Of a stretch of 64,000 bases of DNA, positions 24,806-47,876 are shown piece after piece. The notes beneath the pieces are model-generated. The model was given only the letters and a program-made list of their open reading frames with translations, was not told the DNA's origin and did no database searches. Numbering within the stretch: position 1 is the stretch's first letter; each line of letters opens with the position of its first letter. This DNA comes from Alphaproteobacteria bacterium. Lineage in GTDB: Bacteria; Pseudomonadota; Alphaproteobacteria; MPNO01; UBA2964. A program made the position numbers and the translations under genes. The stretch spans positions 11,869 through 75,868 of the forward strand of contig WLWZ01000011.1 in the NCBI GenBank assembly GCA_012103315.1. Direction: 5' to 3'.

Positions 24806-24806
24806 G

Positions 24807-26303: not shown

Positions 26304-26365
26304 CGCCTTGTCTTTCCGTTAAAGGTAAAAAGGCCGCCCCATCGGGACGGCCCTTTTTGTAACGC

Positions 26366-27625: not shown

Positions 27626-27699
27626 AATTCCTCCAAGTTAGTGTTTGTATTTTTGTTCTGTAGAGACGCTAACGGAGCTTGTTGAATGTTTCAACAGGA

Positions 27700-29196
27700 T
27701 CAATCCACATTGATGCCGGATTCTTTAGCGGCGTGCCGGCCTGCCCGACGACCTGAGGTGAAGGCCCAGCCAATATGATGGCCATGTCCTTTGAGCATTA
27801 GCCCGCCTTGGCCGGCGGAAGCAGCCGCAAAGACTCCGGGAATGGCAGTGTCGTTTTCGCCCAATAGACGATGATCTTCATCAACGGCAAGACCGCCATC
27901 GGTCAAGACGATATAGCTCTTAGCCGGACCCAACGCATAGAACGGCCCTGATGATAATTTTGTTTCGCTTGTTGCATTATGGGCTTCAACGGATTTCTTG
28001 AACTCCTCGGGTGGCATATCCATGGCACCGGCAAGTGTCATAACGGTCTCAGCCTTATGAAAAATATCAGGTCGAGTTTTTCGAAAGTCATCGAGATAGG
28101 CGTATGAAACGCCCGGTGCGGTAGCGATAAAATCGGGCCACGCTGAATACTTTGCTGCCAATTCGCTATCCAGGATGACATAACCAATCTTGTCCGGTTC
28201 GGAGGCGATGGCGAGACCGAGCTTTGACGGCTCGTCGGTAATACGTTGCCCGTTTTTATTCACGAGCAAGGCACCATTGGTAAAAAGAGCGAGTTCCGGA
28301 GCCATAGAAGTCGTGGTGAAACCCAGTACGAAAGGGCGAAGAATTCGATCTGGTAAATACTTCAAGGCGAACCGCATAAATTTGGTGACGACTGGCCAGG
28401 GCGGTAGCATGCGATCAATTGTTTCTCTCGGCGGAGCGATAAATCTCAGCGTTGGACCGGAAAGAACGTCACCATTCAATACTTTGGCACCAAGCGGAAA
28501 AGCCATTTCATGGCCATCGCCGGTGGCGTTGGGGTTCATGGCATCAACCAAGGCGACTTCTGGTGAAATGTATTGAGCCTTGAGTTTATGGTTGGCGGCG
28601 TAGTCACCACTGGCAAGGACGACGGTCTTGGCGTGAACTTCCGTTATGCCTAACGGCATTTCGCATCGAGCCCCGACAACGCGATCACCGTCGAGCAGGA
28701 ATTTGTTAGCACGGCTATTGCAACGGATTTCGACTCCAATTTTGGCAGCATATTTTCCGAGATGGTGGATATAGGCTCGCGAATTGGGCAGGACGTTATG
28801 CATACGCGGTTTACGATGCGGTGGCTCAGGCATCGGGCCGAAAAACTCGACGCCCATCGACATCAGCCAGCGCAACGTCTCATTGGCATTGTCGACGAAA
28901 ATACGACGTAGTTTGGGATTGTCTCGATCGGCCTGATCACCAGAAAACTTGGGCATATCTTCAAAATGCTCGTCGGGTGTATCGACAATGCCGTCCGAGA
29001 GCTGGTGCGGAGTTTGCGTGGCCGAAAAAGACCCAATTGACCAGGCGGTGGTTCCGCCCAGTTCAGGATTTTTCTCGATGAGCATGACTTTGGCACCATG
29101 AGTTCGGGCTTCGATAGCTGCTGCCAAACCGGCGCCACCCCCGCCGACGACTAATACATCACAACTCAAAGATTGCTCTTCGGACACGTATCCCAC
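27700..29196 (-). CDS. FAD-binding flavoprotein dehydrogenase (fumarate reductase / 3-ketosteroid dehydrogenase-like)
   Basis: N-terminal 'CDVLVVGGGGAGLAAAIE' dinucleotide fold. The C-terminal 'GLYAAGE'-equivalent region is 'GVFAAASAGQGGLMLKGHGHH'. Confidence 0.65.
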   Translation of the reverse strand: MGYVSEEQSLSCDVLVVGGGGAGLAAAIEARTHGAKVMLIEKNPELGGTTAWSIGSFSATQTPHQLSDGIVDTPDEHFEDMPKFSGDQADRDNPKLRRIFVDNANETLRWLMSMGVEFFGPMPEPPHRKPRMHNVLPNSRAYIHHLGKYAAKIGVEIRCNSRANKFLLDGDRVVGARCEMPLGITEVHAKTVVLASGDYAANHKLKAQYISPEVALVDAMNPNATGDGHEMAFPLGAKVLNGDVLSGPTLRFIAPPRETIDRMLPPWPVVTKFMRFALKYLPDRILRPFVLGFTTTSMAPELALFTNGALLVNKNGQRITDEPSKLGLAIASEPDKIGYVILDSELAAKYSAWPDFIATAPGVSYAYLDDFRKTRPDIFHKAETVMTLAGAMDMPPEEFKKSVEAHNATSETKLSSGPFYALGPAKSYIVLTDGGLAVDEDHRLLGENDTAIPGVFAAASAGQGGLMLKGHGHHIGWAFTSGRRAGRHAAKESGINVD

Positions 29197-29340
29197 CCTT
29201 ATTAAACGTTATAGTTGTGTTGAGTTTATGCCAGCGATTGAGCATTGCCAAGTTCGCGAAATTGACCCTACTGCGGTAACCGAGTCTGCGGTAGCGTAGG
29301 GGATAAGCTGTGTTGGTTTGTTTGACTAAAAGGATGCGTA

Positions 29341-30336
29341 ATGAAGATCGACGTTTTTAACCATGTGTTCCCCAATGAGTTCTTTGAAGCCGCTGAAAAG
29401 CTGATGCCAGCGCGCGCTGTAAAGCGTTGGAAGGCGATGGAAGAACTCTACGATATGGATGCCCGAATGAAGGTAATCGATAAGTTTGACGATTATCAGC
29501 AGATCATTTCCATATCTCAGCCACCGTTAGATATCATCGCGGGGCCAAATGATTCGCCTGAGCTCGCCCGCGTCGCGAATGATGGTATGGCGCGCATTTG
29601 TCGGGAATACCCAGATCGCATGCCGTGGTTTATCGCAGCATTACCGATGAATAATACAGATGAAGCTATCCGCGAAGTTGACCGCGTTCTCGATGAACAT
29701 GGTGCCGTGGGTTTTCAGATCCATTCGAATGTTGGCGGCAAACCGCTTGATGCGCCAGAGTTCCGTGACATTTTTGCGAAGATCGCCGAACGAGGGAAAT
29801 GTGTCTGGCTTCACCCAACACGACCAGCAAGCCATGCAGATTATTTGACCGAAGACCAGTCACACTACGAAATGTTTTGGGGCATCGGCTGGGCTTATGA
29901 GACGACAGCCGCGATGTGCCGGATGGTTTGTTCGGGCATGTTTGATGAAATCCCCAACTTCCATGTCATGGCACATCACTGGGGTGCCTATATTCCGCAC
30001 GCGGAAGGTCGTATGCCACTGTGGGAGGCACGGAACGGGACTATGTCGGCGGATGGTAGGTCCTTTGCCGATGATCTTGAAAAGCCGATGCTCGATTATT
30101 TCAAAATGTTTTATGGTGATACGGCGATGTTTGGCGCTAAGGCACAAAGCCAAGCAGGGCTGGATTTCTTTGGGTCTGGCAATTCGTTCTTTGCCACGGA
30201 TGCGCCGTATGACCTCACAGGTGGCGAGGATAATATTCGGGAAACCATCGACGTTATCGAGAGTCTAAATTGTACCGATGAAGACCGCCAGGTGATCTAC
30301 GAGGACAATACGAGAAAGCTCATCCTTGGTGAATAG
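29341..30336 (+). CDS. amidohydrolase-2 family (ACMSD / LigW-type) metal-dependent decarboxylase or hydrolase
   Basis: 'MKIDVFNHVFP' has the HxH metal motif at the start, typical of the PF04909 family. There are later His/Asp ligands ('WLHP', 'HHWG', 'FATDAPY'). Its stop abuts the next start (TAGATG). Confidence 0.65.
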   Translation: MKIDVFNHVFPNEFFEAAEKLMPARAVKRWKAMEELYDMDARMKVIDKFDDYQQIISISQPPLDIIAGPNDSPELARVANDGMARICREYPDRMPWFIAALPMNNTDEAIREVDRVLDEHGAVGFQIHSNVGGKPLDAPEFRDIFAKIAERGKCVWLHPTRPASHADYLTEDQSHYEMFWGIGWAYETTAAMCRMVCSGMFDEIPNFHVMAHHWGAYIPHAEGRMPLWEARNGTMSADGRSFADDLEKPMLDYFKMFYGDTAMFGAKAQSQAGLDFFGSGNSFFATDAPYDLTGGEDNIRETIDVIESLNCTDEDRQVIYEDNTRKLILGE

Positions 30337-31073: not shown

Positions 31074-32039
31074 TTAGTCTGGCGCGTCTTCGCCAGGCAC
31101 AACACCGATAGCCGCAAGCGCATCCGCGACGAAATTCTCGGCAATCACATCTTCCCGCGTCACTTTGGGGAGGGAGGGGTTGAGCTTGTAAAACAACTCC
31201 ATCTCATCCTTCCAGTGACCTGTGGTCAGCTCACCATTGATGGCGAAGCCTGCGGTGTCGTGTTCCTGCTGCCAGATGGTTTGGACGTCTTCTTCAGGAA
31301 CTGGGACGGTAACGTAATGGTCATAGACCTTTTTGAACGTCTCAAAGTCATTGTGGAGTGCCCGCGACGCGTTGATCATACCTCGGGTAAGGCGATTGAG
31401 CTCTTCAACATGACCTTGTTCGTAGGCTTCGAGAGTGCCCAGCACACCATGTGGCTGAACAGGAACCAATTTCTTGAGATCGGCAAAGCCAAGCAATGTG
31501 TGCAAACTATTGCTGGAATCCTGGTTTAAAGAAATCGCTTCCTCGACCCGGATAAGGGAGACGTCAATTGTATCGCCGAGCAATCTATCGATACGTTCTG
31601 GCGGTGGGCCTACGGCTTGCCAGTCGATCTCGCTCTCTTCGATGTCGAGCGCTGCAACCAGCAATCGGGCCATATGATGGCTTAGCGCGCCGAATCCATC
31701 GAGTGCCCAGGAACAACCCTTCAGCTGAGCGGGGTCCGTGATTCGGCTCTGGGTGACAAGGTTTTGCGCGAGCCCACGCGCCATTGAAACGATGACGCGA
31801 ACTGGCTGTCCTTCTGATCGGAATTTAAGAACCGGACCAAGTCCACCATAGGAAACATCGACAACATCGTCGAGGACGGCCTGCATAGCGGCAACGCCGC
31901 CATGAACTGGTGTCCAGGTTACATCGAGGTTTTCGTCTTCCCAGCAACCGAGAAGGGTCGCTGCGGCACAGGCAAGATCATCGACGCCGAAGGTCGGTCC
32001 TGACCCTGCTGCGAGCCGGATAGAAAGTGTGTCACTCAT
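31074..32039 (-). CDS. NMT1/THI5-like (SsuA/TauA-type) domain protein without a signal peptide
   Basis: Type-II periplasmic-binding-protein fold of the NMT1 family. The N-terminus 'MSDTLSIRLAAGSGPT' lacks any secretion signal, so it is probably cytoplasmic. Confidence 0.45.
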   Translation of the reverse strand: MSDTLSIRLAAGSGPTFGVDDLACAAATLLGCWEDENLDVTWTPVHGGVAAMQAVLDDVVDVSYGGLGPVLKFRSEGQPVRVIVSMARGLAQNLVTQSRITDPAQLKGCSWALDGFGALSHHMARLLVAALDIEESEIDWQAVGPPPERIDRLLGDTIDVSLIRVEEAISLNQDSSNSLHTLLGFADLKKLVPVQPHGVLGTLEAYEQGHVEELNRLTRGMINASRALHNDFETFKKVYDHYVTVPVPEEDVQTIWQQEHDTAGFAINGELTTGHWKDEMELFYKLNPSLPKVTREDVIAENFVADALAAIGVVPGEDAPD

Positions 32040-32050: not shown

Positions 32051-33166
32051 TTAAGGCGCTACGGTTGTATCGAGATGAATATGAATTGGTTCTTCGCTGT
32101 CTTTGATTTCACGACCCAGTAATTGCACGGCCTTCTCTGCTTCACCGAGGGAATAGTTATGGGTGCATAGTTTTCCAAGGTCTTGCCACTTGTCGGTCAG
32201 GATTTCGACGGCGCGGGCGGTGTCCTCCCAATCCGAGGACAGGACACCGAGCATTGAAATTTCGTTGAACAGCAATTTGTCGCTATAGAAATTATTGAGC
32301 GCGTTATGTGTTTTGACACCGGCGACCACCAGCGTGCCACCTTTTCTCAGCATTTCCACGCCTTGGATCAAGGGTTCAACAGCGCCCATCGAGACATCCA
32401 AGACGATATCTGCTTTGCGGCCACCAGTAATCTCATGGACCCGTTCGACAGGATCTTCGGTTTCGACATTGATCGTTGCATCGGCGCCCAGTTCTTTGGC
32501 GACCTGCAAACGGTATTCGTCTGCTGCTGTGCCCGTCACGATAATCTGTCCGGCCCCCATTTCCTTGGCGACAAGGACACTGAGTAACCCTCGTTGGCCG
32601 GGGCCTTCGATAACGATGGTTTGACCTTCCCGCAAATTGGGGCGCGCCCAGGCCCAACGCACCGCATTTGAGAGCGGGTTGTTAAGGCTCATGATATCGG
32701 TCGGTATGTGATCAGGGATCTTATGCATCCGCGCCTTAGGGTGTAGATAAAGATGTGATGCGTAACCACCCCAAAGGTGCGGCTCGTTGTCGAACCCCAT
32801 TCGAATGCCATACCCCATATTGGCATCACAGAAGATAGGACGGCCGTCGTGACAGGCGAGACATTCGCCGCACGGGATCGAGGTTTCGACGATGACGCGG
32901 TCACCCTCTTTTACGTTCCATTTCTTGGCGGCGTTGGCGCCAACCTTATCGATCCAACCGAAAATCTCGTGTCCTGGTGTAATGGGCAGAGTTCCGTGCG
33001 GGGTGCCAATAAAGTGCCCGTCATATTGTTCGTAGTCAGTGCCGCACAGTCCGGCCGCTTCGATACGAAGGATGCCTTCGTCCGCGCCGATATTGGGAAT
33101 CGGAACCTCGCGGGTCTCAAATTTACGTTTCTCAACAAGTACGGCGGCGTATGCGGTCTCGGTCAT
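32051..33166 (-). CDS. Zn-dependent alcohol dehydrogenase (MDR superfamily)
   Basis: Catalytic-Zn ligands 'GLCGTDYE...GHE', structural-Zn Cys cluster 'CGECLACHDGRPIFC', and a Rossmann segment. Confidence 0.8.
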   Translation of the reverse strand: MTETAYAAVLVEKRKFETREVPIPNIGADEGILRIEAAGLCGTDYEQYDGHFIGTPHGTLPITPGHEIFGWIDKVGANAAKKWNVKEGDRVIVETSIPCGECLACHDGRPIFCDANMGYGIRMGFDNEPHLWGGYASHLYLHPKARMHKIPDHIPTDIMSLNNPLSNAVRWAWARPNLREGQTIVIEGPGQRGLLSVLVAKEMGAGQIIVTGTAADEYRLQVAKELGADATINVETEDPVERVHEITGGRKADIVLDVSMGAVEPLIQGVEMLRKGGTLVVAGVKTHNALNNFYSDKLLFNEISMLGVLSSDWEDTARAVEILTDKWQDLGKLCTHNYSLGEAEKAVQLLGREIKDSEEPIHIHLDTTVAP

Positions 33167-33169: not shown

Positions 33170-34000
33170 TTAGCTCCGTCCACCAACAGCGATTTTATCT
33201 GCCGTGGTGTTTGTAAATTTTGCGCGGGTGTTCTCCATGAACTTAATGCAGTCAGGATCGTAGTCGTGCTGGGGCTGAGGGTCGATCCCCCAATTGTCAC
33301 CGACGTTTTCACCGCGCACCAGCATTGCGGTGGCGCCGTCGAAACGCGTCTCTTTAACGTGTGGCGCGACATAATGGATCGAGAACCCAACGCGGGGGTG
33401 ATTGGCATTATTGGGTCCTGACCCATGCACAACGCTTTCATGATGTAACACAACTTGGCCTGCATTGACCTCTGCGAAGATGGCTTTGTCCTCAGGAACA
33501 TCGATAACGGTTTGACCTTGCTGAACCAGGTTATGTTCGTGCTTCTTAATCTCATGAATAGCGGGCGGACCTTTATGGGTGCCCGGAATATACTGCACGC
33601 AACCGGACTCGACCGTTGCGTCGTTGAACGCCAGCCAAGCTGTCACTGTTTCTGCCGGTTCAAGCCCGTAATAGAAGCTGTCGGTGTGCCAGGACACAAA
33701 CCTCGGGTCGTTGGCTTTCTTGGTAAAAAACGAGGCGCCCCAACACAGGATATTCGGCCCGAGAATGTCTTCGATTGCGTCCAACAGGTTTTCGTTGCGT
33801 ACGACATCGCATAGCCAGGGAAATGGTAGGTGCGCTTTGATTCGAAATTTCTTTTGCGGTTCGTGGCCGAGCCGTTTCTCCATTGCTGCAAAATTTTCAT
33901 GTAAGCTCGCAGCCTCGTCGGGAGTGTACGCTTCTACGGGAAACAGGAATCCGTTTTCATCAAATTCCCTGACCTGTTCCTCTGTCAAAACATTTGGCAT
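33170..34000 (-). CDS. phytanoyl-CoA dioxygenase (PhyH) family Fe(II)/2-oxoglutarate oxygenase
   Basis: 'WHTDSFYY' (HxD) plus a distal 'HHESVVHGSGPN'. The start is moved to the ATG at 34000 (MPNVLTEEQ), which follows GGAGTG. Confidence 0.65.
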   Translation of the reverse strand: MPNVLTEEQVREFDENGFLFPVEAYTPDEAASLHENFAAMEKRLGHEPQKKFRIKAHLPFPWLCDVVRNENLLDAIEDILGPNILCWGASFFTKKANDPRFVSWHTDSFYYGLEPAETVTAWLAFNDATVESGCVQYIPGTHKGPPAIHEIKKHEHNLVQQGQTVIDVPEDKAIFAEVNAGQVVLHHESVVHGSGPNNANHPRVGFSIHYVAPHVKETRFDGATAMLVRGENVGDNWGIDPQPQHDYDPDCIKFMENTRAKFTNTTADKIAVGGRS

Positions 34001-34119
34001 GTGCAACACTCCACAATCGATCTTTGCTTTCCCATTTTGGCGCGAATTGCTTCCGATTACCAATATCGGCACCATCGATAGGGAATTCCGTTATAATGAT
34101 CAAAATATGGGAGGATGAA

Positions 34120-34563
34120 ATGGCAGACAAGAAAGCAAAGGCACTCGGGATCAATCACATCGTGCTTGAAGTTGGTGATCTCGATGATGCGCTGGAATTC
34201 TATGGGAAACTATTTGATTTCAGCCTACGTGGCCGGAACGACAAAAATGCGTTTATTGATCTTGGTGATCAATTTATCCAGCTTCGTCTTGGTAGAACGC
34301 AGGAAGCAGATGGAGCCCGGCATTTTGGATTTGTGGTGGATGATCGAGCACCGGTAGAGCAAGCACTAAAAGAAATGGGTGTTGAGTTGCTTGAGCGGGG
34401 CATGAATTTTCGTGATCCCTGGGGCAATCGTGTTGAGATCGTTCCTTATGATGACATTCAGTTTAGTAAGGCACCGAATGTTCTTCGGGGTATGGGATTA
34501 GAGGGGCTAAAGAAAACACCTGCGGCCATCGAAGAGCTGACAAAAAAGGATATGGCGCCTTAG
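34120..34563 (+). CDS. VOC (glyoxalase/bleomycin-resistance/extradiol dioxygenase) family protein
   Basis: 'INHIVLEVGDLDDALEFY' beta-alpha-beta-beta-beta module and 'DPWGNRVEIV'. The start is the ATG at 34120, which follows GGGAGG. Confidence 0.7.
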   Translation: MADKKAKALGINHIVLEVGDLDDALEFYGKLFDFSLRGRNDKNAFIDLGDQFIQLRLGRTQEADGARHFGFVVDDRAPVEQALKEMGVELLERGMNFRDPWGNRVEIVPYDDIQFSKAPNVLRGMGLEGLKKTPAAIEELTKKDMAP

Positions 34564-34657
34564 GAGCCCAATCCGGTAACGAAACCGTTATTGGCGGATT
34601 GCCAGGCGGGGCACATATTGGGATCAAGAAAACAGGCGGGGCAAAGGAGACAGCATC

Positions 34658-36199
34658 ATGAATGACATGAGCATGGAAAAGACGTTTGATTTTATCCAGA
34701 CAGCGAATGACATCCTGATTTCGCTGGTCGTGTTTGCGCTCGGAGTCGGCATCGTTGTTGTAGCAGTTCTCTATGTCATCGACGTAACCCAAACAAAACA
34801 GGCGGTACGTCGGAACTTTCCGGTTGTTGGACGTTTCCGATATTTGTTTGAACATATGGGGGAGTTTTTTCGTCAGTATTTTTTCGCGATGGATCGTGAA
34901 GAAATGCCTTTCAATCGGGCGCAACGCTCGTGGGTTTATCGAGCGGCCAAGAACGTCAGTACGCAGCTCGCCTTTGGGTCAACGCGTGACATCACGCCGC
35001 CTGGGACAATTTTTTTCGTTAACTGCCCGTTTCCAACGTTAGAAGTAGATGCGGCTGAACCGGGTCAGGTTACAGTCGGGCCTTACTGTGAAAACCCTTA
35101 TACGACGACCTCGTTCTTTAATGTCTCCGGTATGAGCTATGGCGCTATTTCGGAACCTGCAGTACGCGCGCTTTCCAACGGTGCCAAGGCAGCGGGAAGT
35201 TGGATGAATACTGGTGAAGGCGGGCTGTCGCCATTCCACCTAGAAGGTGGGTGCGATATCGTCTTTCAGATGGGCACGGCCAAGTACGGTGTTCGCGACC
35301 AAAATGGTGAATTATCAGACGAAAAGTTGAGGGGCATCGCCGCTCACGAGCAGGTTCGGATGTTCGAGATCAAATTAAGCCAGGGCGCGAAACCAGGTAA
35401 AGGTGGCATTCTGCCAGGCGGTAAAGTGTCAGCAGAAATCGCCACAATTCGCGGAATACCCGAAGGTCAGGATTCTATTAGCCCAAACCGGCACCCTGAT
35501 ATCGATAATGTTGAAGACATGATCAATATGATTGATCGTATCCGGAAGGTGACCGGTAAACCGGTTGGCATAAAATGTGTCATTGGTGCCTATGGCTGGC
35601 TTGATAGCCTGTTCAAAGCGATTACCGAGCGCGGTATTGAAAGTGCGCCGGACTTTATCACCGTCGATTCTGGTGATGGCGGAACCGGGGCTGCGCCCAT
35701 GGCATTGCTCGACTATGTCGGCCTACCGGTAAAGGAAAGCCTGCCAATGGTTGTCGATACACTGACACGACACGGTCTTAAGGATCGCGTGAAAGTGATT
35801 TCATCCGGCAAGTTGGTGACGCCAGAGGAAGTGGCCTGGGCGCTTTGTGCAGGCGCTGATTTTGTTGTCTCCGCGCGCGGATTTATGTTCGCGCTCGGCT
35901 GTATCCAGGCTTTGCAATGCGACAAAAATACCTGTCCAACCGGGATCACGACGCATAACAAGCGCTTGCAAAAAGGCCTCGATCCAACCGACAAAGCTGA
36001 GCGGGTCATGAACTACATTAAGACGATGCGAAAAGAGGTCGGCATAATTGCTCATTCCTGTGGCGTGAAAGAGGCCCGACATTTGCGTCGCTACCATTGT
36101 CGTGTCGTCATGGCAGATGGCAAATCCAAGGCACTTGATGAGGTTTTTCCTGAACATCGGTCTCCCGGTTCAAAACAGGAAAGTGAAGCCGCGGCTTGA
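34658..36199 (+). CDS. FMN-binding glutamate-synthase-family protein (GltB domain-2-like) with an N-terminal TM helix
   Basis: PF01645-type blocks 'GMSYGAIS', 'NTGEGG', 'KLSQGAKPGKGGILPG', and the [4Fe-4S]/FMN region 'DFITVDSGDGGTGAAP'. There is one N-terminal TM segment. Confidence 0.7.
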   Translation: MNDMSMEKTFDFIQTANDILISLVVFALGVGIVVVAVLYVIDVTQTKQAVRRNFPVVGRFRYLFEHMGEFFRQYFFAMDREEMPFNRAQRSWVYRAAKNVSTQLAFGSTRDITPPGTIFFVNCPFPTLEVDAAEPGQVTVGPYCENPYTTTSFFNVSGMSYGAISEPAVRALSNGAKAAGSWMNTGEGGLSPFHLEGGCDIVFQMGTAKYGVRDQNGELSDEKLRGIAAHEQVRMFEIKLSQGAKPGKGGILPGGKVSAEIATIRGIPEGQDSISPNRHPDIDNVEDMINMIDRIRKVTGKPVGIKCVIGAYGWLDSLFKAITERGIESAPDFITVDSGDGGTGAAPMALLDYVGLPVKESLPMVVDTLTRHGLKDRVKVISSGKLVTPEEVAWALCAGADFVVSARGFMFALGCIQALQCDKNTCPTGITTHNKRLQKGLDPTDKAERVMNYIKTMRKEVGIIAHSCGVKEARHLRRYHCRVVMADGKSKALDEVFPEHRSPGSKQESEAAA

Positions 36200-36242
36200 A
36201 GGCTGGCGCCAGAACGCCTGATCGATCATTATTAAGTATCGA

Positions 36243-36782
36243 TTGAGTGCTTACACAGGTGACATCATGTCCGGTTTTAAGAGCGACGCTTTCAAAGGTG
36301 CCGATACTATAAAATATGAGGAACCGCGCAGAGTCGCTGCGACAGGTATTCTTCATTTTACAATTGGCGTAACCGACCTTGAGGTGTCACGGAAATTCTA
36401 CGAAGAGGTCGTTGGCTGTACCTATTGGCGGCAGAATGACACCACGGTGTTTATGAAGGCCGGTGAGGACTATTTCGTTTTGTCGCGGACGGGGTATCAT
36501 CAACCACCCAATAAGCCTCAGGATTCGCTTATCCATCACGCCTTCATGGTTGATGGAGCTGATTTCGATGCAGCAATGTCTCACTTGGAGGACCAAGACG
36601 TTGAGATCTTGCTTTATGAAGATACAGGACATCGTAGTTTTTCAGGTCGCCACGCGTACTTTCATGACCCCGATGGCAACGGCATTGAGATTATTGATTT
36701 TCAGGGTGTGGGCGACATCTCTGCTGAAGCTTATCAGGGGCGTCAACGGCGTCTTCCCAAATCACATCTGTCCGGGGAGTAA
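36243..36782 (+). CDS. VOC family protein
   Basis: 'ILHFTIGVTDLEVSRKFYEEVVG' and 'HAYFHDPDGNGIEI'. Confidence 0.65.
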   Translation: MSAYTGDIMSGFKSDAFKGADTIKYEEPRRVAATGILHFTIGVTDLEVSRKFYEEVVGCTYWRQNDTTVFMKAGEDYFVLSRTGYHQPPNKPQDSLIHHAFMVDGADFDAAMSHLEDQDVEILLYEDTGHRSFSGRHAYFHDPDGNGIEIIDFQGVGDISAEAYQGRQRRLPKSHLSGE

Positions 36783-36791
36783 CGAGTCGTT

Positions 36792-37982
36792 ATGGAGGGA
36801 AGTGTTTCGGGATCTACGACGGTCACGCATAAAGAAATTGTCGCGTGGGCAACTGCTCTTGTCCCTTTCTTGCGCGAGAAAGCAGCCGAGACCGAAAATC
36901 GTCGCTCGATGTTGCCGGAAGTTTATGATCGTTTAAATGAGGCTGGTCTTCTTGGCATAACGTTGGCGCCGGGTCTTGGGGGGCTTGGTATGGGCTTACC
37001 CACACATCTTGAAGCCGTCATGGAAACGGCGCGTGGATGCGGTTCCACTGCCTGGCTACACAGTCTGATCGGCAATCAAAACTATCTCGTTGGTTGGTAT
37101 CCGCCGCAGGCGCAAAATGAAGTCCGGGCAGCAGGTGGATCACTGTTTACGTGTCTGGTTATGGGCGCAACCATCACGGCGGATAAAGCCGAAGGCGGCG
37201 TACGGCTTACCGGAAGTTGGCCATATGTATCTGGTGTAGACCAGGCGAATTGGTTGATGCTTAGTGCGCATGACCCTGACAACCCGAAACGCAACCTGAC
37301 ATGTCTCATTCCGAAATCTTCAGTCTCGGTAAAAGATGACTGGTATTGCTTTGGTATGAAGGGAACGGGCAGTAAAACGGTCTCGTTAGATGACGAATTT
37401 GTGCCTGATCATCGCGTTTTGTGCTTCCGCGAGGCCGAACAAAACGGAATCCCCGGTTCTGCGATAAACGATGGGCTGCTCTACAAAACGAGCCCCAATT
37501 CTACGGTGTTTGCATTTGTCGTTGCCGCTCCGGCCGTGGGGCTGGCGCAGTGTGCTATTGAAGCTTATCGGGATCGTTTAAAAAGTCGGACCAATGCGCG
37601 GATGCCATCAGCGCAATCAGAGTGGGCGTCTTCGCAGCAACGTCTGGGGCGCGCTAGAACGCAATGTGATATCGCGAAGGCGACAGTGCTTGAGAGTGCC
37701 CACAAACTGATGAAACAGCTGGAGGCGGGACAACGTATTTCGGCTGAAGATCGGATTCGCTATCGCATGGCGATGGTCGAAATCGTGCGTCTCTGTAGTG
37801 AGCTCGTCTATGACCTCTTCTGTGATGCTGGAACAGGCGTCATGATGGACGACAGCGGCTTACAACGTGCTTTCCGTGATATACATGTCTTGAGGAGCCA
37901 CTTCGTGATCCTGCCTGAATTTGCGACCGAGAATGCTGGACGAATACAGCTTGGACTCGATCCAACAGGGCCATTTGTGTAA
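36792..37982 (+). CDS. acyl-CoA-dehydrogenase-fold flavin-dependent monooxygenase (HsaA/DszC/C2-hydroxylase class), paralogue 1
   Basis: ACAD-like N-terminal helical domain, middle beta domain and C-terminal domain, with no CoA-binding Glu base. Similar to group-D two-component monooxygenases. Confidence 0.55.
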   Translation: MEGSVSGSTTVTHKEIVAWATALVPFLREKAAETENRRSMLPEVYDRLNEAGLLGITLAPGLGGLGMGLPTHLEAVMETARGCGSTAWLHSLIGNQNYLVGWYPPQAQNEVRAAGGSLFTCLVMGATITADKAEGGVRLTGSWPYVSGVDQANWLMLSAHDPDNPKRNLTCLIPKSSVSVKDDWYCFGMKGTGSKTVSLDDEFVPDHRVLCFREAEQNGIPGSAINDGLLYKTSPNSTVFAFVVAAPAVGLAQCAIEAYRDRLKSRTNARMPSAQSEWASSQQRLGRARTQCDIAKATVLESAHKLMKQLEAGQRISAEDRIRYRMAMVEIVRLCSELVYDLFCDAGTGVMMDDSGLQRAFRDIHVLRSHFVILPEFATENAGRIQLGLDPTGPFV

Positions 37983-38099
37983 AGCGCTCTCGACTTCGGG
38001 TTTATTTGCCGATGAGGTTGTTAATCCGCTCGTTTTCCTTTCCTATATTTGTAAAGAATAACAAACGGCTTCACCTAAACGTTCAAGAGTGGATTGATT

Positions 38100-39314
38100 A
38101 TGCCTGATGCTGGACACAGCGCGGACGTTTCGCGCGAAGAATTGGCAGAACGTGCCCGTGCGATGGTCCCTGTTTTACAGAATCGTGCGCCCGAGGCGGA
38201 AAAGAACCGGCGGGTGCCGGATATCACGCACAAAGAATTTGTCGAAGCAGGATTTTACAGAATGTTCCAGCCGCGCCGCTATGGTGGCTATGAAATGGAC
38301 TGGGATTGTATTCTGGACGTGGCTTCCGAGCTTGGACGCGGTTGTGGTTCGAGCTGTTGGGTGTTTACGAACTTGACCGGTCAAACTTGGATTAATGGGA
38401 TGAAGGGGGAGCAGGCTCAGGATGACGTTTGGAAGGACAATCCTGACGCCGTCATTGCATCATCTTTCCCAGGCAAAGGCGCATCCGTCAAAGTCGTCGA
38501 TGGTGGTTGGATCGCCGATGGTATGTGGGGATTTTCGAGCGGTATCGATTTTGCCGACTGGAGCAACGTCCAGCTTTTCGTGCCACAGGAAAATGGTCCG
38601 CCGCAGCATCAGTTTGCGCTTGTTCCGAAAACCGATTTCACTGAGATGGTGGATGATTGGAACCCGAGCGGGTTGGCAGCGACGGGTAGCCGGTCTTTTG
38701 TTCTGAAAGAAGTGTTCATCCCTGAACATCGGGCAATATCGGCCGGGCAAGTTCAAGGCGGTCCGACCCCGGGGAGCGATGTTAATCCAATCTCGCTCTA
38801 CAAGATTCCACTATTTGCCATGGGGACCAAACAATTTGCTTCGACAGCGGTTGGTATCGCGTTGGGTGCACTGGATGCCATGTGGGCGGATTTAGCAACG
38901 CGCAAATCGGTGGCCGGGGTAAAACTCAGTGAGCAAGGGACGGTTCAGTCTCGCGTTGCTGAGTCGAGCGCTGAGATTGAAGCAGCGCGGGCACTTTTGC
39001 TGGAAGACTTCCGCGAGAGCAATCTGGTTGCGGCGAGCGATGATCCGCCGACCCAAGAGCAACGGGCCCGCTGGCGCCGGAATAATTCTTTTGCTGGTAA
39101 ACTGTGCGTTCAGGCTGTCGAAAGGCTATTTCCGCTGGCAGGCGGGCGAGGACTAGGGTTTGATAGCCCGTATCAACGCGCAGTCCGCGATGTTCATGCC
39201 GCAACCTCACAAAATAGTATGGCGTGGGATGTCGCGGCGACCACCTATGCCCAGCAGCAGTTTGGTGCGGTGATATCAGATCCGAGATATTTTCCCGACA
39301 CCAAAAAGAATTGA
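38100..39314 (+). CDS. acyl-CoA-dehydrogenase-fold flavin-dependent monooxygenase, paralogue 2
   Basis: Same architecture as 36792-37982, with conserved 'GG.EMDW', 'GMWGFSSG' and C-terminal 'ARWRRNNSF' regions. The start is at the ATG at 38100. Confidence 0.55.
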   Translation: MPDAGHSADVSREELAERARAMVPVLQNRAPEAEKNRRVPDITHKEFVEAGFYRMFQPRRYGGYEMDWDCILDVASELGRGCGSSCWVFTNLTGQTWINGMKGEQAQDDVWKDNPDAVIASSFPGKGASVKVVDGGWIADGMWGFSSGIDFADWSNVQLFVPQENGPPQHQFALVPKTDFTEMVDDWNPSGLAATGSRSFVLKEVFIPEHRAISAGQVQGGPTPGSDVNPISLYKIPLFAMGTKQFASTAVGIALGALDAMWADLATRKSVAGVKLSEQGTVQSRVAESSAEIEAARALLLEDFRESNLVAASDDPPTQEQRARWRRNNSFAGKLCVQAVERLFPLAGGRGLGFDSPYQRAVRDVHAATSQNSMAWDVAATTYAQQQFGAVISDPRYFPDTKKN

Positions 39315-39352
39315 TCAGGTATAATCCTCTTATCGCATTTCAGGAGAACGTT

Positions 39353-39832
39353 ATGGCTAAGCTAAGACACATTGCAATGTCGGTTGATGATCCCGAGAAA
39401 ACCGCGGATTTCTATTGTGAAGCGTTTGATATGGAGCGCGTTGGGACAACAGATTCACCGCTGGCCAAAGGTTGCTATGTGTCTGACGGCGTTATTACCG
39501 TTGCGTTGTTAAAATACAAATCCGACCATTGGGCAGGGTATGTTGATGGCGAGGATGAGCGTGGCAAAGATTATGTCGGGCTTCATCATATTGGCTTTTG
39601 GGTCGACGATGCGGAAGAGGCTGATAAAAAGATCGAGAAGGCCGGCGGTAAATACTTCATGGGTCGTCCGGACAAGAAAGCCCCGACAACATTTTATGAA
39701 ATAAAATACCGCGACCCCAATGGCGTCATCTTTGACGTGACCCATCTGGGCTGGGGCGGTGCCACCAAGGACGTCATTCCCGCACCTGGAACACCAGAAC
39801 CACCTGGCCGGGGCCATCCCAAAGATAACTGA
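39353..39832 (+). CDS. VOC family protein
   Basis: 'LRHIAMSVDDPEKTADFY' and 'LHHIGFWVDD'. The start is the ATG at 39353, which follows AGGAGAA. Confidence 0.65.
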   Translation: MAKLRHIAMSVDDPEKTADFYCEAFDMERVGTTDSPLAKGCYVSDGVITVALLKYKSDHWAGYVDGEDERGKDYVGLHHIGFWVDDAEEADKKIEKAGGKYFMGRPDKKAPTTFYEIKYRDPNGVIFDVTHLGWGGATKDVIPAPGTPEPPGRGHPKDN

Positions 39833-41785: not shown

Positions 41786-42094
41786 TTACTGTTCCGGTGG
41801 CAAGATTTCAACCGTGCAAATTTCTGCTGTTAGGTGACCTCGACCTATATCCTCCAGATGCATGCGCTTTTGCTCGTTGGAAAGAACTTGTCCTAAGCCC
41901 TGCGTCATCATGAGAATGATTGAACGATCTGCCATATCGAGCCAGTAACCGCGTCTGGCCAATTTGCCATCTGCATCGCGTGCAAAAGGATTGTTGGGAT
42001 CTTGTCCCATGTCGGGTTCGTAGAACTTGGCCATGATCTCTATTCGCTCAATTAAACGGAGCGCTAAACTGCCCAGCTTTTCGACTATTCGCAA
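41786..42094 (-). CDS. small hypothetical protein upstream of uup
   Basis: A 102 aa ORF (or 82 aa from an internal ATG). No recognisable motif. Weak call. Confidence 0.2.
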   Translation of the reverse strand: MRIVEKLGSLALRLIERIEIMAKFYEPDMGQDPNNPFARDADGKLARRGYWLDMADRSIILMMTQGLGQVLSNEQKRMHLEDIGRGHLTAEICTVEILPPEQ

Positions 42095-43175: not shown

Positions 43176-43838
43176 GTGGAGACGGCTTTCGCAGGTACGA
43201 TAGTTTTGTCTGATGAGGAACAGTCAAGTTTCCAGGCAGACTTTCAATCAGCGTACGTCAAGGTCTGTAATTGGTGGGGGCAGAGTTTCACCGGACCGTT
43301 CAAGGTTATTATTGTTTATCGTGGTCCCTCCCGTGCACTGACGCCAGCCTGGAGAGGCAATCGCGGGACAATGTTTTTCCGCAAAAACACCTTGTTGTTT
43401 CGGAACGCCGCGATCACACATGAACTAACGCATGTGTTGGCACCAAACGGAAATCGTTTTCTCGCAGAAGGCTTGGCTGTATACGCTCAAGAGCATTTGA
43501 AAGGCCTCTCTGCATATCCTAATGATGGAGAGGATATTCATACGCTGGCTAAGGAATTTTCTGAACAGGCAAATTTGTCCGATCTTGATGAGCAGGCGAC
43601 GCCGAGTTCTCTCTCCGTCGATGGTCTCAGCGTGAGAGAGGCCTATTTGGTGTCTGGGTCCTTCGTCCGATATCTGATCGAGCGTTATGGAATGAAGAAA
43701 TTCCGCGAACTATATGCCCTTTCGCCCTTCCAGTCATATCGCAGAAATGCTGGCTCTTCGGGAAGGTGGAAAGATGTTTACAAGAAATCACTAAAATCAC
43801 TGGAAGCTGATTGGCGTGCTATGCTGGGAAAACTTTAG
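43176..43838 (+). CDS. putative zinc metallopeptidase-like protein (HExxH), start uncertain
   Basis: 'AAITHELTHVL' is an HExxH motif. The listed start is a GTG. A hydrophobic signal-peptide-like segment is encoded in frame upstream but is separated from an ATG by a stop codon (see findings). Confidence 0.4.
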   Translation: METAFAGTIVLSDEEQSSFQADFQSAYVKVCNWWGQSFTGPFKVIIVYRGPSRALTPAWRGNRGTMFFRKNTLLFRNAAITHELTHVLAPNGNRFLAEGLAVYAQEHLKGLSAYPNDGEDIHTLAKEFSEQANLSDLDEQATPSSLSVDGLSVREAYLVSGSFVRYLIERYGMKKFRELYALSPFQSYRRNAGSSGRWKDVYKKSLKSLEADWRAMLGKL

Positions 43839-44440
43839 CTAACTTTTTGCCGCTGTTTTCGCCATTTGTACCAGGTGAGGAGGGCGAAAGCGGGGGCGCC
43901 AACTGAAGCGCCGACCACAAACGGCATTTGCCAGCCAAGCCAGACAATGGGTGCGAACAAATAAAGCACGTCATCGAAATCAAACCCCCAGATGCCGGGG
44001 TAGGCTTTGTCGCCGGTGTCAGTGTTCATCTGGTCGATCTTTTCGGCATAGATTTCGGCAGCGAAGACACCGGCCGTGCCCAGGGCACCCATCAAGATCA
44101 TCCAGTTTCCAAAATGTCCGTCACGTAGCCCGATGCCGGCGCCGATGAAGAACAGAGAGGTCACGGTAATATCGCAGAACATGTCATAACGATGACCGCC
44201 AGGAGTAATCTTGCCGGTTAACCGAGCTAGTTCGCCATCAGCGCGGTCCATAAAGGCGGAGAACAACCAGAGCCAGCCGCCCCAGATATCCCACTGGCGA
44301 TCACCGATTGCGAAGGCGGAGCAGGCGGCGACGCCTGTAATTAGCCGCAACGTCGTCAAATGGTTCGGTGTGACGGCCGTGTTGGCCAGCGGGGCGATAC
44401 ATATTTTTGCAATTTTATGGGTCCAGGAGTCGCCGACCAT
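43835..44440 (-). CDS. CDP-alcohol phosphatidyltransferase family protein, translationally coupled to hpnK
   Basis: Signature 'DRADGELARLTGKITPGGHRYDMFCD' (D-x2-D-G-x2-A-R...G...D-x3-D). It is a six-TM protein. Its ATG overlaps the hpnK stop. Confidence 0.7.
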   Translation of the reverse strand: MVGDSWTHKIAKICIAPLANTAVTPNHLTTLRLITGVAACSAFAIGDRQWDIWGGWLWLFSAFMDRADGELARLTGKITPGGHRYDMFCDITVTSLFFIGAGIGLRDGHFGNWMILMGALGTAGVFAAEIYAEKIDQMNTDTGDKAYPGIWGFDFDDVLYLFAPIVWLGWQMPFVVGASVGAPAFALLTWYKWRKQRQKVS

Positions 44441-45270
44441 TATATATCCCTGTATGTCGATAGTTTGATATCAGAATTAGCGATTGCCGCCGCAACATCA
44501 GGCGAGATCAAGGCATCGAATTCCTCTTTAAACTTAAAGTCAGACGCCGCAGGGTCCATACCCTCCCAATCTCCCGTAGCGGGATGAGAGAAAATTTCCG
44601 TGACCCCATCACGCAATTTTGTGATGGCGGACAGGAGCTGGGTTTGATTGAGCGTTCCAGTCTCAGTGATGCCAATAATTTGGTCGTTATACCGGATGCC
44701 CGCCCGCCGCAAACGCCAACGCATCAAACTGATCCATGGTGAAAGTAACACCGCTCCCAAGCCACCATTCTTTTCAGCAGGCAGCCGAACCGCTTTGATG
44801 CCAAATTCCGCTGCATTCTCGAGAATGCAGCTGAGCACGATCGGGTGAAGATGCATATGGTTGTGGGCATTCACATGATCGAGCGCCAAGCCGGTATCTC
44901 GAAAGGCTCTGAACTGCGCTCGAATCTCTGCACTGAGTTGGCGCCGTGCCCTAGGTGAAAAGAAGTAGCGAAACCCTGCGCGAACAAGGTTGTCCTCCAA
45001 GAACCCATTTGGCGCAATGGAGGAAAGCTGGTCCGGTGGTAGCGTAGATCTGCCTCGTGCAACGACGATGTGAAGCCCAACACCAAGATCAGGGTGCCGT
45101 TTAGCGCGCGCGATAGCGTCTCGTACTTCAGGCTCGCCGACCATCAGGCAGGTCGCTGTCAAGATTCCGTTGGAATGTGCTGCTTCGATCGCTTCGTTTA
45201 CCGGAATCGATATGCCGAAATCATCACCCGTGACGATTAAGCGTTTCAGACTGCGTTCTCCCGGCCCCAC
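44440..45270 (-). CDS. hpnK: YdjC-like carbohydrate deacetylase, hopanoid-associated HpnK
   Basis: 'LIVTGDDFGIS' N-terminal ChbG/YdjC motif and 'HVNAHNHMHLHP'. It sits directly after a B12-radical-SAM gene and a GT2 gene, in the hpnIJK order. Confidence 0.65.
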   Translation of the reverse strand: MGPGERSLKRLIVTGDDFGISIPVNEAIEAAHSNGILTATCLMVGEPEVRDAIARAKRHPDLGVGLHIVVARGRSTLPPDQLSSIAPNGFLEDNLVRAGFRYFFSPRARRQLSAEIRAQFRAFRDTGLALDHVNAHNHMHLHPIVLSCILENAAEFGIKAVRLPAEKNGGLGAVLLSPWISLMRWRLRRAGIRYNDQIIGITETGTLNQTQLLSAITKLRDGVTEIFSHPATGDWEGMDPAASDFKFKEEFDALISPDVAAAIANSDIKLSTYRDI

Positions 45271-46673: not shown

Positions 46674-46709
46674 CCTGTATTCCGTATCCCCTGGATCTTG
46701 ATTTCTGGC

Positions 46710-47876
46710 CTACTTGGCAACCTTTAGCCTGTTGTCAGCCAAGACAACGAATTCCCGCTCCCGCCACAGAACTTTCGTTCCACAAAAACTATAAATTCGT
46801 ACCGCGAAGGATAGCATATCCCGCACCGGAATTAACCACGCGCCGCAGGATTTACCATTGGTGAGCCCGCGGCACACTGCATAATGCAAGATTGTCCGCA
46901 TGCCCAGTGCAATCGTCACCGGCATTAAAGACATAGAGATGGAAGCGCCTAAAGTGAAGGCACCAAAGGCGGCGAAAATTGAAAGTGGAAAAATTTCAGT
47001 CGTTATTGAGGCAGCATAGCCACCGGGTTGAACGGAACGAATTGTCCGCGCCCATCTGATTTCGTGGAAAAATACACCTTTAAGGTCTTCTTCCAATATG
47101 ACGTTTTCAACAATGTATGGCACCAAGGCGACATCATAACCCTGGTCGACGACAAACTTTCCAAGCATGTAATCGTCCGCGAGAAAGTCGGCCAAAGCAG
47201 GGAATCCTCCGAAATCCTCTAGCACATTCCGCCGAACAGCCATTGTTGCACCGAAGCAGAATTTTAACTTACCAAACATCGTTGGGATCAGAGCTGACGG
47301 TAAAAACCAGTCATTGACGAACATGGCGCCGAGCCGTGACGCCAGACCTTTCGCAGCAGTGCCGGAATACAGGCACGTGGTGGCACCGACCTTGCTGTCA
47401 CCAAAGGGGGCGGTCACACGTTGTAGATAGTCGGGACTTACCCGCATGTCGCTATCAGAGATAACGAAAATGCCGTGTTTCGCAGTTTTGGCCATATTGG
47501 CAAGGTTGCTGATCTTATAGTTGGATCCGATGATCTGATCATCGACGACCAGAGAGATATCCCGGTCGGGAAATTCCTTTATGACTGCTTCGATAACGGG
47601 AATGGCCGGGTCGGTTTTTTCTCGAACACCGAATATTACCTGGTGTTCAGCGTATTCCTGACGGCAAAAAGAGCGCAAATTTTCGGCCAGTTCGAATTCC
47701 ATGCCACAAATGGGCTTCAAAACTGTCACAGGAAGATTATTTGACGAAGAGACGGGATGTCGTGTCTTCTGACGAAAGACCAAAACGCGACCGGTCGCCA
47801 CGATCATGTACCCCATTGCGAACACGAATAGCGATAGCGCGAGAACAGATAGAACTGTGGGTATGGTGAAAACCAA
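46710..47876 (-). CDS. hpnI: GT2 glycosyltransferase, ceramide-glucosyltransferase-like, hopanoid-associated HpnI
   Basis: N-terminal TM, 'VLKPICGME' then 'ISNLANM' and 'DSDM' (D-x-D). A C-terminal multi-TM region, as in HpnI / ceramide glucosyltransferases. Confidence 0.6.
   Translation of the reverse strand: MVFTIPTVLSVLALSLFVFAMGYMIVATGRVLVFRQKTRHPVSSSNNLPVTVLKPICGMEFELAENLRSFCRQEYAEHQVIFGVREKTDPAIPVIEAVIKEFPDRDISLVVDDQIIGSNYKISNLANMAKTAKHGIFVISDSDMRVSPDYLQRVTAPFGDSKVGATTCLYSGTAAKGLASRLGAMFVNDWFLPSALIPTMFGKLKFCFGATMAVRRNVLEDFGGFPALADFLADDYMLGKFVVDQGYDVALVPYIVENVILEEDLKGVFFHEIRWARTIRSVQPGGYAASITTEIFPLSIFAAFGAFTLGASISMSLMPVTIALGMRTILHYAVCRGLTNGKSCGAWLIPVRDMLSFAVRIYSFCGTKVLWREREFVVLADNRLKVAK

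Follow-up and report, generated by a model that had tools for sequence, protein, structure and literature searches.

A variable gene cluster encoding ACAD-fold oxygenase-like, VOC and PhyH proteins in uncultured marine Alphaproteobacteria

Composition of the cluster

The DNA stretch considered here, 64,000 nucleotides (nt) of contig WLWZ01000011.1 from an alphaproteobacterium (hereafter, the window), contains a cluster of seven genes encoding a PhyH-family oxygenase (PhyH), three small VOC proteins (VOC1, VOC2 and VOC3), two ACAD-fold proteins resembling flavin-dependent oxygenase components (ACAD1 and ACAD2) and a protein with a flavin mononucleotide (FMN)/[3Fe-4S] domain of the glutamate synthase (GltS) type (Table 1). 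Gene boundaries are based on the open reading frame (ORF) listing of the window, with the starts refined using orthologues, and the Pfam scan covered 58 of the 60 non-overlapping ORFs with a length of 100 amino acids (aa) or more. Curated family assignments follow the cut-offs of NCBIfam/TIGR hidden Markov models (HMMs), and solved relatives are matches in the PDB. An alignment scan with ACAD2, using one genome per species, yielded 79 loci, the six-frame ORFs of which were searched with all window proteins; the closest comparison includes 13 related species genomes (the clade), and comparison loci are designated below by L numbers. Purifying selection is clear for all seven genes across their orthologues, which marks them as genuine genes rather than accidental ORFs.

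The initial annotation, made from the sequence alone, described an oxidative, catabolic-looking set of these seven genes, and its observations have held: Pfam confirmed each of the domain calls, and the general character of the set is supported by the comparisons reported below. The three VOC genes are indeed separate, belong to three different subfamilies (24–28% identical or not detectably alike) and are the only VOC genes among the scanned ORFs of the window. The two ACAD-fold genes are adjacent paralogues, as claimed, and their products are only 28% identical, which indicates old paralogues; a recent duplication was rejected for the same reason. No ORF with a domain of the flavin-reductase families (Flavin_Reduct, FMN_red, Nitroreductase, Fre-type) was found by Pfam among the scanned ORFs, and phmmer likewise gave no match in the window when two genuine reductases of the HpaC/GraD type, from annotated plasmid loci, served as queries, in agreement with the annotated lack of a visible reductase. 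A regulator is likewise absent from the cluster, the sole one among the scanned ORFs being a LysR gene located 23 kb away.

PhyH heads a minus-strand run, PhyH – Zn-dependent alcohol dehydrogenase (Zn-ADH) – solute-binding protein (SBP), which is divergent from VOC1; the Zn-ADH and SBP genes also stand beside PhyH in L002, L003, L005, L008–L014 and L072. An alignment of 11 orthologous PhyH/VOC1 spacers revealed a conserved TATAAT/TATAGT box some 25 nt ahead of the start of VOC1, along with a conserved GGAG. A generic promoter scan did not call this –10-like box, and the promoter and terminator sites that it predicted were fewer than in shuffled sequence. Among the co-directional genes, the gaps are 9 nt between VOC2 and ACAD1, 111 nt between ACAD1 and ACAD2 and 38 nt between ACAD2 and VOC3.

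Table 1. Position of the cluster genes and of other features mentioned in the text (window coordinates)
Feature	Position	Strand	Evidence
PhyH-family Fe(II)/2-oxoglutarate oxygenase, 276 aa	33170–34000	–	Pfam PhyH, 103 bits
Divergent intergenic region PhyH/VOC1, 119 nt	34001–34119		Conserved –10-like box and VOC1 ribosome-binding site
VOC1, single-domain VOC metalloenzyme (predicted), 147 aa	34120–34563	+	Pfam Glyoxalase PF00903, 43 bits
GltS-type membrane-anchored stand-alone FMN/[3Fe-4S] domain protein, 513 aa	34658–36199	+	Glu_synthase, 303 bits
VOC2, 171 aa	36267–36782	+	Pfam Glyoxalase PF00903, 45 bits
ACAD1, HsaA/C2-type ACAD-fold oxygenase component (predicted), 396 aa	36792–37982	+	Acyl-CoA_dh_2 (PF08028), 88 bits
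ACAD2, HsaA/C2-like ACAD-fold protein, ~405 aa	38094–39314	+	Acyl-CoA_dh_2 (PF08028), 101 bits
VOC3, 159 aa	39353–39832	+	Pfam Glyoxalase PF00903, 49 bits
Zn-dependent alcohol dehydrogenase (Zn-ADH)	32051–33166	–	Pfam ADH_N/ADH_zinc_N
NMT1/SsuA-like solute-binding protein (SBP)	31074–32039	–	Pfam NMT1
LysR gene	9982–10905
VanA-type Rieske oxygenase	13857–14906
DAO-family FAD oxidoreductase, split	21817–23045	–	Pfam, in two parts
Small ORF (~82 aa in relatives)	41786–42094	–
HpnK	44440–45270		Above NCBIfam cut-off
HpnJ	45246–46673		Above NCBIfam cut-off
HpnI	46710–47876		Above NCBIfam cut-off
HpnL	47966–48985		Above NCBIfam cut-off
TauE and methionine sulfoxide reductase genes	53068–54471
LigXa-type Rieske oxygenase	55683–57062

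Relationships and active-site residues of the encoded proteins

HMM scores and solved relatives support an assignment of the ACAD-fold pair, called group D flavin monooxygenases in the initial annotation, to the HsaA/C2 type. The HsaA model NF045629 (cut-off 450 bits) gave 211.7 bits for ACAD1 and 272.1 bits for ACAD2, and the C2-type model NF045920 (cut-off 650 bits) gave 175 and 226 bits for the pair, so that both proteins lie below the equivalog thresholds. The searches of the PDB revealed clear relationships to 2rfq (E-value 6.5e-43 for ACAD1 and 3.6e-61 for ACAD2) and, for ACAD2, to 2jbr (9.5e-55); the strong solved relatives of both proteins are all HsaA, C2, XiaF, Rv3094c or DszC. Judging by the fold, the Acyl-CoA_dh_2-type C-terminal domain and these oxygenase-component relatives, both ACADs can be classified as putative members of group D (ACAD-fold) of flavin monooxygenases.

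The closest parallel is the HsaAB/HsaC system of actinobacterial steroid catabolism, where an ACAD-fold reduced-flavin oxygenase is likewise followed by a VOC-superfamily enzyme, and HsaA is the best match of both ACADs. At the same time, the scores of the cluster proteins reach about half of the HsaA cut-off, ACAD2 possesses Gln where HsaA has His, and the partners HsaB, HsaC and HsaD have no counterparts in the cluster or among the 58 scanned ORFs of the window. HsaC is a two-domain protein of about 300 aa, whereas the VOC proteins of the window are single-domain and comprise 147–171 aa. The second-best match, C2 of the p-hydroxyphenylacetate 3-hydroxylase of Acinetobacter baumannii (PDB codes 2JBR–2JBT), has the same fold, but the cluster contains no C1-type reductase.

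In C2, Ser171 stabilises the C4a-hydroperoxyflavin (PMC10696468), His120 and Arg263 take part in substrate binding and His396 serves as the proton donor (PMC10537072). ACAD1 carries the motif RDIHVLRSH, in which the His matching C2 His396 is kept in 15 of 15 orthologues. The alignment of ACAD2 to C2 indicates that, among the C2 residues Ser146, Ser171, His120, Arg263 and His396, only the two serines have kept equivalents (Ser171 corresponds to ACAD2 Ser149), and that Gln97, Phe241 and Gln373 stand in the places of His120, Arg263 and His396. Gln occupies the position of His396 in all 81 ACAD2-family ORFs of the examined loci (L002–L086); His is found there in C2, in both HsaA structures, in Rv3094c and in two plasmid GraA-like homologues, and 2or0 is unaligned at this site. 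The invariant replacement of His by Gln indicates that ACAD2 represents a distinct, Gln-variant subfamily of HsaA/C2-like proteins. The search for an HpaC/GraD-type flavin reductase gene up to 10 kb from each of the 79 ACAD2 loci gave no match; such a gene may be encoded elsewhere in the genome.

Clusters of resorcinol hydroxylases of the Gra type, in which GraA/GraD are combined with a gamma-resorcylate decarboxylase and a ring-cleavage dioxygenase, offer another comparison, GraA of Rhizobium sp. MTP-10005 being a resorcinol hydroxylase. The plasmid homologues, one of them annotated as graA, are 38–40% identical and are accompanied by genes of an amidohydrolase and of ring cleavage (intradiol dioxygenase); an Amidohydro_2 gene is present in the window too. 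Unlike the window cluster, these graA-like loci have an adjoining flavin reductase gene and keep the His, and their ring cleavage is of the intradiol or homogentisate type and does not involve small VOC proteins.

The initial annotation left it to HMM classification whether the VOC proteins are dioxygenases or glyoxalases; no VOC protein of the cluster reaches any curated cut-off for dioxygenases, glyoxalases, epimerases or Fos enzymes. All three contain, at the canonical positions, a 2-His-1-carboxylate set that is invariant in orthologues; its carboxylate is Glu in VOC1 and VOC2 and Asp in VOC3. This site is common to type I extradiol dioxygenases and FosA, so it does not discriminate between them. 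VOC1 and VOC2 are nearest to Fos resistance enzymes, and VOC3 to glyoxalase I and methylmalonyl-CoA epimerase, all of them far below the cut-offs. The curated extradiol dioxygenase models (TIGR03211, TIGR02295 and TIGR03213) gave 21–31 bits for the VOC proteins against cut-offs above 320 bits.

In VOC1, the invariant residues are His13, His68 and Glu106 (14 orthologues), and the nearest solved proteins are FosA and FosB (E-value about 1e-6); the NCBIfam Fos models scored 34–38 bits against cut-offs of 180–280 bits. With the Fos models NF000496 and NF003152 included (cut-offs 171–310 bits), VOC1 reached at most 38 bits and VOC2 at most 54 bits. His30, His90 and a Glu of VOC2 align with the metal ligands of FosA. 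The VOC2 stretch TGHRSFSGRHAYFHDPDGNGIE displays the spacing His-x8-Tyr-x9-Glu and fits the extradiol dioxygenase signature save for an Ala in place of [LIVMF]; across the VOC2 set, one of 12 sequences fits this pattern strictly and six of 12 do so if any residue is allowed before the Tyr, and neither VOC1 nor VOC3 matches it. Weak matches of VOC2 include the BphC-III-related structure 3ey8 and ChaP-H1 (6a52), with E-values of 1e-6 to 2e-4, FosA and FosB scoring better. In its 2-His-1-Glu set and His-x8-Tyr-x9-Glu spacing, VOC2 resembles one-domain BphC-type extradiol enzymes and ChaP of chartreusin biosynthesis, and it seems to be the best candidate among the VOC proteins for an extradiol-type ring-cleavage dioxygenase.

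VOC3, a very conserved protein, has invariant His6, His78/79 and Asp128, and Ala at the fourth ligand position. Its predicted model (pLDDT 80) is nearest to methylmalonyl-CoA epimerases (TM score about 0.55–0.6), BH1468, which is an uncharacterised Bacillus protein, and a C-As lyase; the fold search confirmed the VOC fold and did not discriminate the function. The glyoxalase I model TIGR00068 (cut-off 120 bits), the four ligands of which are His/Glu/His/Glu, gave 27.7 bits for VOC3 and 20 bits for VOC1. The second ligand position of VOC3 is non-acidic, falling on Leu/Lys of ALLKYK in the alignment with 1f9z and on Ala51 in that with 1jc4, and Asp replaces the last Glu. The methylmalonyl-CoA epimerase model TIGR03081 (cut-off 115 bits), the ligands of which are His/Gln/His/Glu, gave 24 bits for VOC3, with Ala at the equivalent of Gln65. 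The invariant metal ligands, together with the deviating glyoxalase and epimerase positions, suggest that VOC1, VOC2 and VOC3 are metalloenzymes outside the glyoxalase I, epimerase and Fos families.

PhyH clearly belongs to the PF05721 family (103 bits against a gathering score of 22 bits) and retains the iron triad within the motifs WHTD (His105/Asp107) and HHESVVHG, both invariant in orthologues, which confirms the divergently oriented Fe/2-oxoglutarate oxygenase of the initial annotation as having the HxD...H motif of hydroxylases. Its best solved relative is 6zyk (E-value 4.9e-33). A halogenase role was rejected, the motif being HTD (HxD) and not HxA/G; the SyrB2-type halogenase model TIGR01762 (cut-off 226 bits) gave 90 bits, over the N-terminal part only. 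PhyH is present in 12 of the 13 clade genomes. Its homologues below approximately 73% identity occur without any of the partners, often in tandem arrays; on marine metagenome contigs (positions 1593–4636 of L141; also L143, L145 and L161–L169), two to four PhyH paralogues that are 50–60% identical to the window PhyH stand in tandem.

The GltS-type protein contains a single hydrophobic stretch at approximately residues 19–45 (19-residue Kyte–Doolittle mean up to 3.1) and the C-x5-C-x4-C motif CIQALQCDKNTC at residues 415–426; the N-terminal transmembrane helix and the FMN/Fe-S domain noted initially are thereby confirmed. Its similarity to GltS large subunits is limited to approximately their residues 850–1165, and the glutamate synthase model NF008730 (cut-off 1047 bits) gave 139.5 bits, covering model positions 860–1164 only, so that the four-domain architecture is lacking. 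The protein resembles GltB in the synthase domain and the Cys motif; in contrast to GltB, it has no amidotransferase, central or GXGXG domains and possesses an additional N-terminal membrane helix. Homologues 70–75% identical occur across proteobacterial classes. A search of the literature under the NCBI family name found only the MgsC-type subunit of N-methylglutamate synthase, and the GltS-type protein is not of the MgsC type; the literature on the family name, PDB 6zyk and GraA contained nothing usable for this subfamily, and no characterised member of the GltS-type family was found.

Three genomic contexts bear on the function of this protein. At L072 (positions 6868–8670; also in L103), the slot of the GltS-type gene is occupied by a Glu/Leu/Phe/Val (ELFV) dehydrogenase gene together with a 106-aa remnant of the GltS 3′ part, the Cys motif of which is broken; this looks like a non-orthologous replacement. 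In Pelagibius (L089, positions 8001–13148), the gene lies in a co-directional run, and the start of an aldehyde dehydrogenase gene overlaps its end. At L004 (positions 7188–11590), the adjoining gene encodes a thiamine pyrophosphate (TPP)-dependent enzyme fused to a Rieske domain. In both L004 and L089, the GltS-type gene is accompanied by genes of a TPP-dependent enzyme and a DM13-domain protein, with no adjoining VOC or ACAD gene. The ELFV dehydrogenase in the slot, the aldehyde dehydrogenase/TPP run of Pelagibius and the Rieske–TPP fusion neighbour link the GltS-type protein, by context, to amino acid/2-oxo acid conversion. The cluster lacks this gene in L012, L016, L019, L020 and L021, and in L072 and L103 the gene has decayed and been replaced; it is therefore accessory and not part of the core. 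The idea that the GltS-type protein is the missing flavin reductase was rejected, since sister genomes keep both monooxygenase genes without it.

Conservation of the locus and possible function

Among the 79 loci, ACAD2 occurs with PhyH, VOC1 and VOC3 only where it is at least 67% identical to that of the window, and all such loci belong to metagenome-assembled genomes of uncultured marine Alphaproteobacteria (labelled Rhodospirillaceae, Alphaproteobacteria or UBA2964). Within the clade, the cluster occupies a fixed site, always upstream of the same PEP_mutase-family gene and, with the exception of L016, of the same ABC-F gene. All seven genes are present in five of the 13 clade genomes (L008–L011 and L015). 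L013 and L014 have no VOC2, L012 has neither the GltS-type gene nor VOC2, and L016 has only PhyH, VOC1, ACAD2 and VOC3, lacking the GltS-type gene, VOC2 and ACAD1. L020 and L021 are without the GltS-type gene and carry PhyH in two copies and VOC2 in one or two; L019 has neither PhyH nor VOC1 in the vicinity, its VOC3 gene is in inverted orientation and its ACAD1 gene comes after ACAD2. The GltS slot is filled in L019 and L021 by a bicupin gene and a weakly CMD-like gene. A metagenome scan with PhyH recovered the clade architectures again.

The stable core of the locus thus consists of SBP, Zn-ADH and PhyH on one strand and VOC1, ACAD2 and VOC3 on the other, and the inserts between VOC1 and ACAD2 are interchangeable, being the GltS-type gene, the ELFV dehydrogenase gene, the CMD-like and bicupin genes, the VOC2–ACAD1 pair, or none. 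The pattern of presence and absence across the clade indicates that the VOC2–ACAD1 pair and the GltS-type gene are optional. The 9-nt VOC2–ACAD1 junction and the adjacency of ACAD2 and VOC3 are kept wherever both genes are present. In L017, a VOC2-type gene lies directly upstream of an ACAD2 homologue, and in L022, L026 and L029, genes of a fourth VOC subfamily are found directly upstream of ACAD2 homologues; the recurrence of a small VOC gene beside an HsaA-like gene in independent lineages supports a putative functional pairing of hydroxylase and VOC protein.

On balance, and with moderate confidence, we interpret the locus as a lineage-restricted, modular neighbourhood for the oxidation of aromatic or heteroaromatic compounds, which occupies a fixed chromosomal site within a larger (hetero)aromatic-acid catabolic island. 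This reading draws on the aromatic-acid catabolic genes of the window, on the company of distant ACAD2 homologues (UbiD, UbiX, FAA hydrolase, amidase or Rieske dioxygenase genes) and on the gra-like plasmid clusters, besides the metal triads of the VOC proteins and the extradiol-like spacing in VOC2. Only the domain identities, the pattern of conservation and the residue states are shown directly; the functional roles given here are inferred. According to this proposal, ACAD1 and ACAD2 would ortho-hydroxylate a phenolic or heteroaromatic substrate with reduced flavin supplied by a reductase encoded elsewhere, and the product of each would be taken over by its own small VOC partner, an Fe(II)- or Mn(II)-dependent protein with a 2-His-1-carboxylate site. 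Ring cleavage of the extradiol type would most likely fall to VOC2, as a single-domain dioxygenase; for VOC1 and VOC3, ring cleavage is one possible reaction besides isomerisation and lyase chemistry. PhyH would hydroxylate an aliphatic position, and Zn-ADH would oxidise the resulting alcohol. The optional GltS-type protein, a putative membrane-bound FMN/[3Fe-4S] oxidoreductase, or the ELFV dehydrogenase in its stead, would probably convert an amino acid into its 2-oxo acid or the reverse and thereby supply the pathway.

If this proposal is correct, abundant uncultured marine Alphaproteobacteria possess a plug-and-play oxygenase site in which hydroxylase/VOC pairs and an amino-acid-oxidising step are swapped, which bears on the question of which dissolved aromatics these bacteria take out of seawater. 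The locus also draws attention to two families without a characterised member, the Gln-variant HsaA-like oxygenases with no linked reductase and the membrane-anchored stand-alone GltS-domain proteins; otherwise, the cluster is an ordinary uncharacterised catabolic neighbourhood of the flavin-monooxygenase and VOC type.

Several findings weigh against modular aromatic oxidation. No VOC protein reaches the cut-off of a dioxygenase family, VOC3 is structurally closest to epimerases, and the cluster contains no gene of a meta-cleavage hydrolase, hydratase or aldolase. The amino acid/2-oxo acid role of the GltS-type protein is drawn from just the three contexts described above. Homologues of VOC3 and PhyH with 70–80% identity occur in quite different neighbourhoods, and some of the adjacency at this cluster could be historical rather than functional. 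ACAD2 lacks the His common to C2, both HsaA structures and Rv3094c, and no reductase gene lies near any member of its family, which suggests that ACAD2 may not act as a standard two-component hydroxylase.

The initial annotation proposed instead that the seven genes form one compact pathway dedicated to a single unusual substrate, in which hydroxylations and ring cleavage would possibly follow in series. In its favour, all seven genes are arranged co-linearly with short gaps and evolve under purifying selection, and they are kept together, with the same flanks, in the window, L002, L003/L015 and L008–L011; such an arrangement nevertheless appears improbable, since sister genomes keep the core without the GltS-type gene, VOC2 or ACAD1, or hold other genes in the slot, and members of the GltS-type, VOC3 and PhyH families are each common elsewhere in the absence of the rest of the set. 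Gene content varies within the clade and the neighbours differ outside it, so that a single dedicated unit of seven genes is not supported. The initial annotation had named VOC proteins of glyoxalase or resistance type, combined with a lack of conservation of the cluster in related genomes, as the outcome that would speak against it, and the results lie halfway: none of the VOC proteins is a dioxygenase by the curated HMMs, and the unit is kept, in very close relatives only. Its interpretation is therefore partly supported, the observation itself being confirmed.

The opposite view, that small oxidoreductase genes without a common pathway (those of detoxification-type VOC proteins and orphan oxygenases) have gathered at a variable chromosomal hot spot, deserves just as little credence as the dedicated pathway. 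Close relatives differ in the genes that they carry at the site, some but not all genomes have hpn genes inserted in its vicinity, and each family has unrelated neighbours elsewhere. VOC3 homologues with 72–82% identity, for example, are found beside Amidohydro_2, TctC, ornithine-cyclodeaminase-like and cupin genes, or beside molybdenum hydroxylase and aldolase genes; ACAD2 homologues with 45–62% identity are accompanied by amidase and hydantoinase genes or by Rieske dioxygenase genes, and tandem pairs of them by EamA, UbiD, UbiX, FAA hydrolase and amidase genes. However, the adjacency of VOC and ACAD genes recurs with four VOC subfamilies in independent lineages, the 9-nt and 38-nt junctions and the divergent promoter region are conserved, and the core persists over a range of ACAD2 identities of 67–93%.

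It is also conceivable, and in our opinion quite unlikely, that the ACAD2 subfamily is a distinct oxygenating system unlike the textbook two-component monooxygenases, with the highly conserved GltS-type family, as a related reading, being undescribed FMN/[3Fe-4S] amino-acid:quinone-type dehydrogenases. The invariant Gln at the site of the oxygen-activating His, the lack of a reductase gene within 10 kb at the 79 loci and the repeated partnering with small VOC proteins suggest such a system. In a system of this kind, the VOC partner could use flavin-derived peroxide, by analogy with ChaP, or ACAD2 could bind flavin tightly and be reduced by another partner.

Tailoring of a natural product is very unlikely. 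It would imply that PhyH acts like SyrB2 on a tethered amino acid, the ACADs like XiaF or nitrososynthases, and a VOC protein like ChaP with flavin-activated oxygen. The best curated match of PhyH is indeed the chlorinating-enzyme family, SyrB2 and CytC3 align with the N-terminal half of PhyH, and XiaF and ChaP-H1 are among the solved relatives of the cluster proteins; set against this, the 58 scanned ORFs include no polyketide synthase, nonribosomal peptide synthetase, carrier protein or terpene synthase, the AMP-binding enzyme and thioesterase genes lie at least 19 kb away, the HxD motif of PhyH is not that of a halogenase, and the surroundings are made up of transporter and catabolic genes. 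Organosulfur scavenging, with SsuA-like import, SfnB/DszC-like attack by the ACADs and sulfite export by TauE, is likewise very unlikely: SBP matches the SsuA family, models of SfnB and DszC are hit by both ACADs, the window holds genes of TauE and methionine sulfoxide reductase, and in L005 TauD and an NMT1-type ATP-binding cassette transporter stand beside the core, but SBP reaches 36 bits on an SsuA model with a cut-off of 164 bits, the SfnB scores of 55–60 bits against a cut-off of 431 are far weaker than the 212–272 bits for HsaA, the cluster has no SsuD/SsuE-type or luciferase-like genes, and TauE is located 14 kb away.

Genomic surroundings

The aromatic-acid catabolic island extends over window positions 12725–30336 and 49863–57062. 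Apart from the two Rieske oxygenases (Table 1), it encodes two TctC-like binding proteins, TctA/TctB, UbiD, an aldehyde dehydrogenase and an EutA-like protein, as well as an Amidohydro_2 protein (3 kb upstream of the cluster), an Amdase/maleate-isomerase-like protein and two cupin proteins of about 400 aa. The DAO-family FAD oxidoreductase gene is split: positions 1–220 of the Pfam model are found in 22167–23045 and positions 248–353 in 21817–22275, which points to either a frameshift pseudogene or an assembly error.

Phosphonate metabolism, suggested by the Fos-like VOC proteins, PhyH, an alcohol dehydrogenase weakly similar to phosphonate alcohol dehydrogenases and the PEP_mutase-family gene nearby, was rejected, because the PEP_mutase-family protein is nearest to methylisocitrate lyase (161 bits, compared with 81 bits for the phosphoenolpyruvate mutase model) and the Fos scores are far below the cut-offs.

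Two small ORFs with PAS_5 domains lie between ACAD1 and ACAD2 in L006 (positions 8955–9973), and L002 has a 78-aa ORF there; in some lineages, the PAS_5 ORFs could thus provide the locus with a sensor or regulator of its own. Window positions 43835–49851 hold a set of genes for the hopanoid side chain, between two CDP-alcohol phosphatidyltransferase genes. This hpn block is present in L006 and absent in L002 and L003, where the PEP_mutase-family gene is closely followed by the aldehyde dehydrogenase and UbiD genes, which indicates an insertion or deletion between close relatives. A small ORF with no Pfam match (Table 1) is kept between the ABC-F and PEP_mutase-family genes in L002, L003, L005 and L006.

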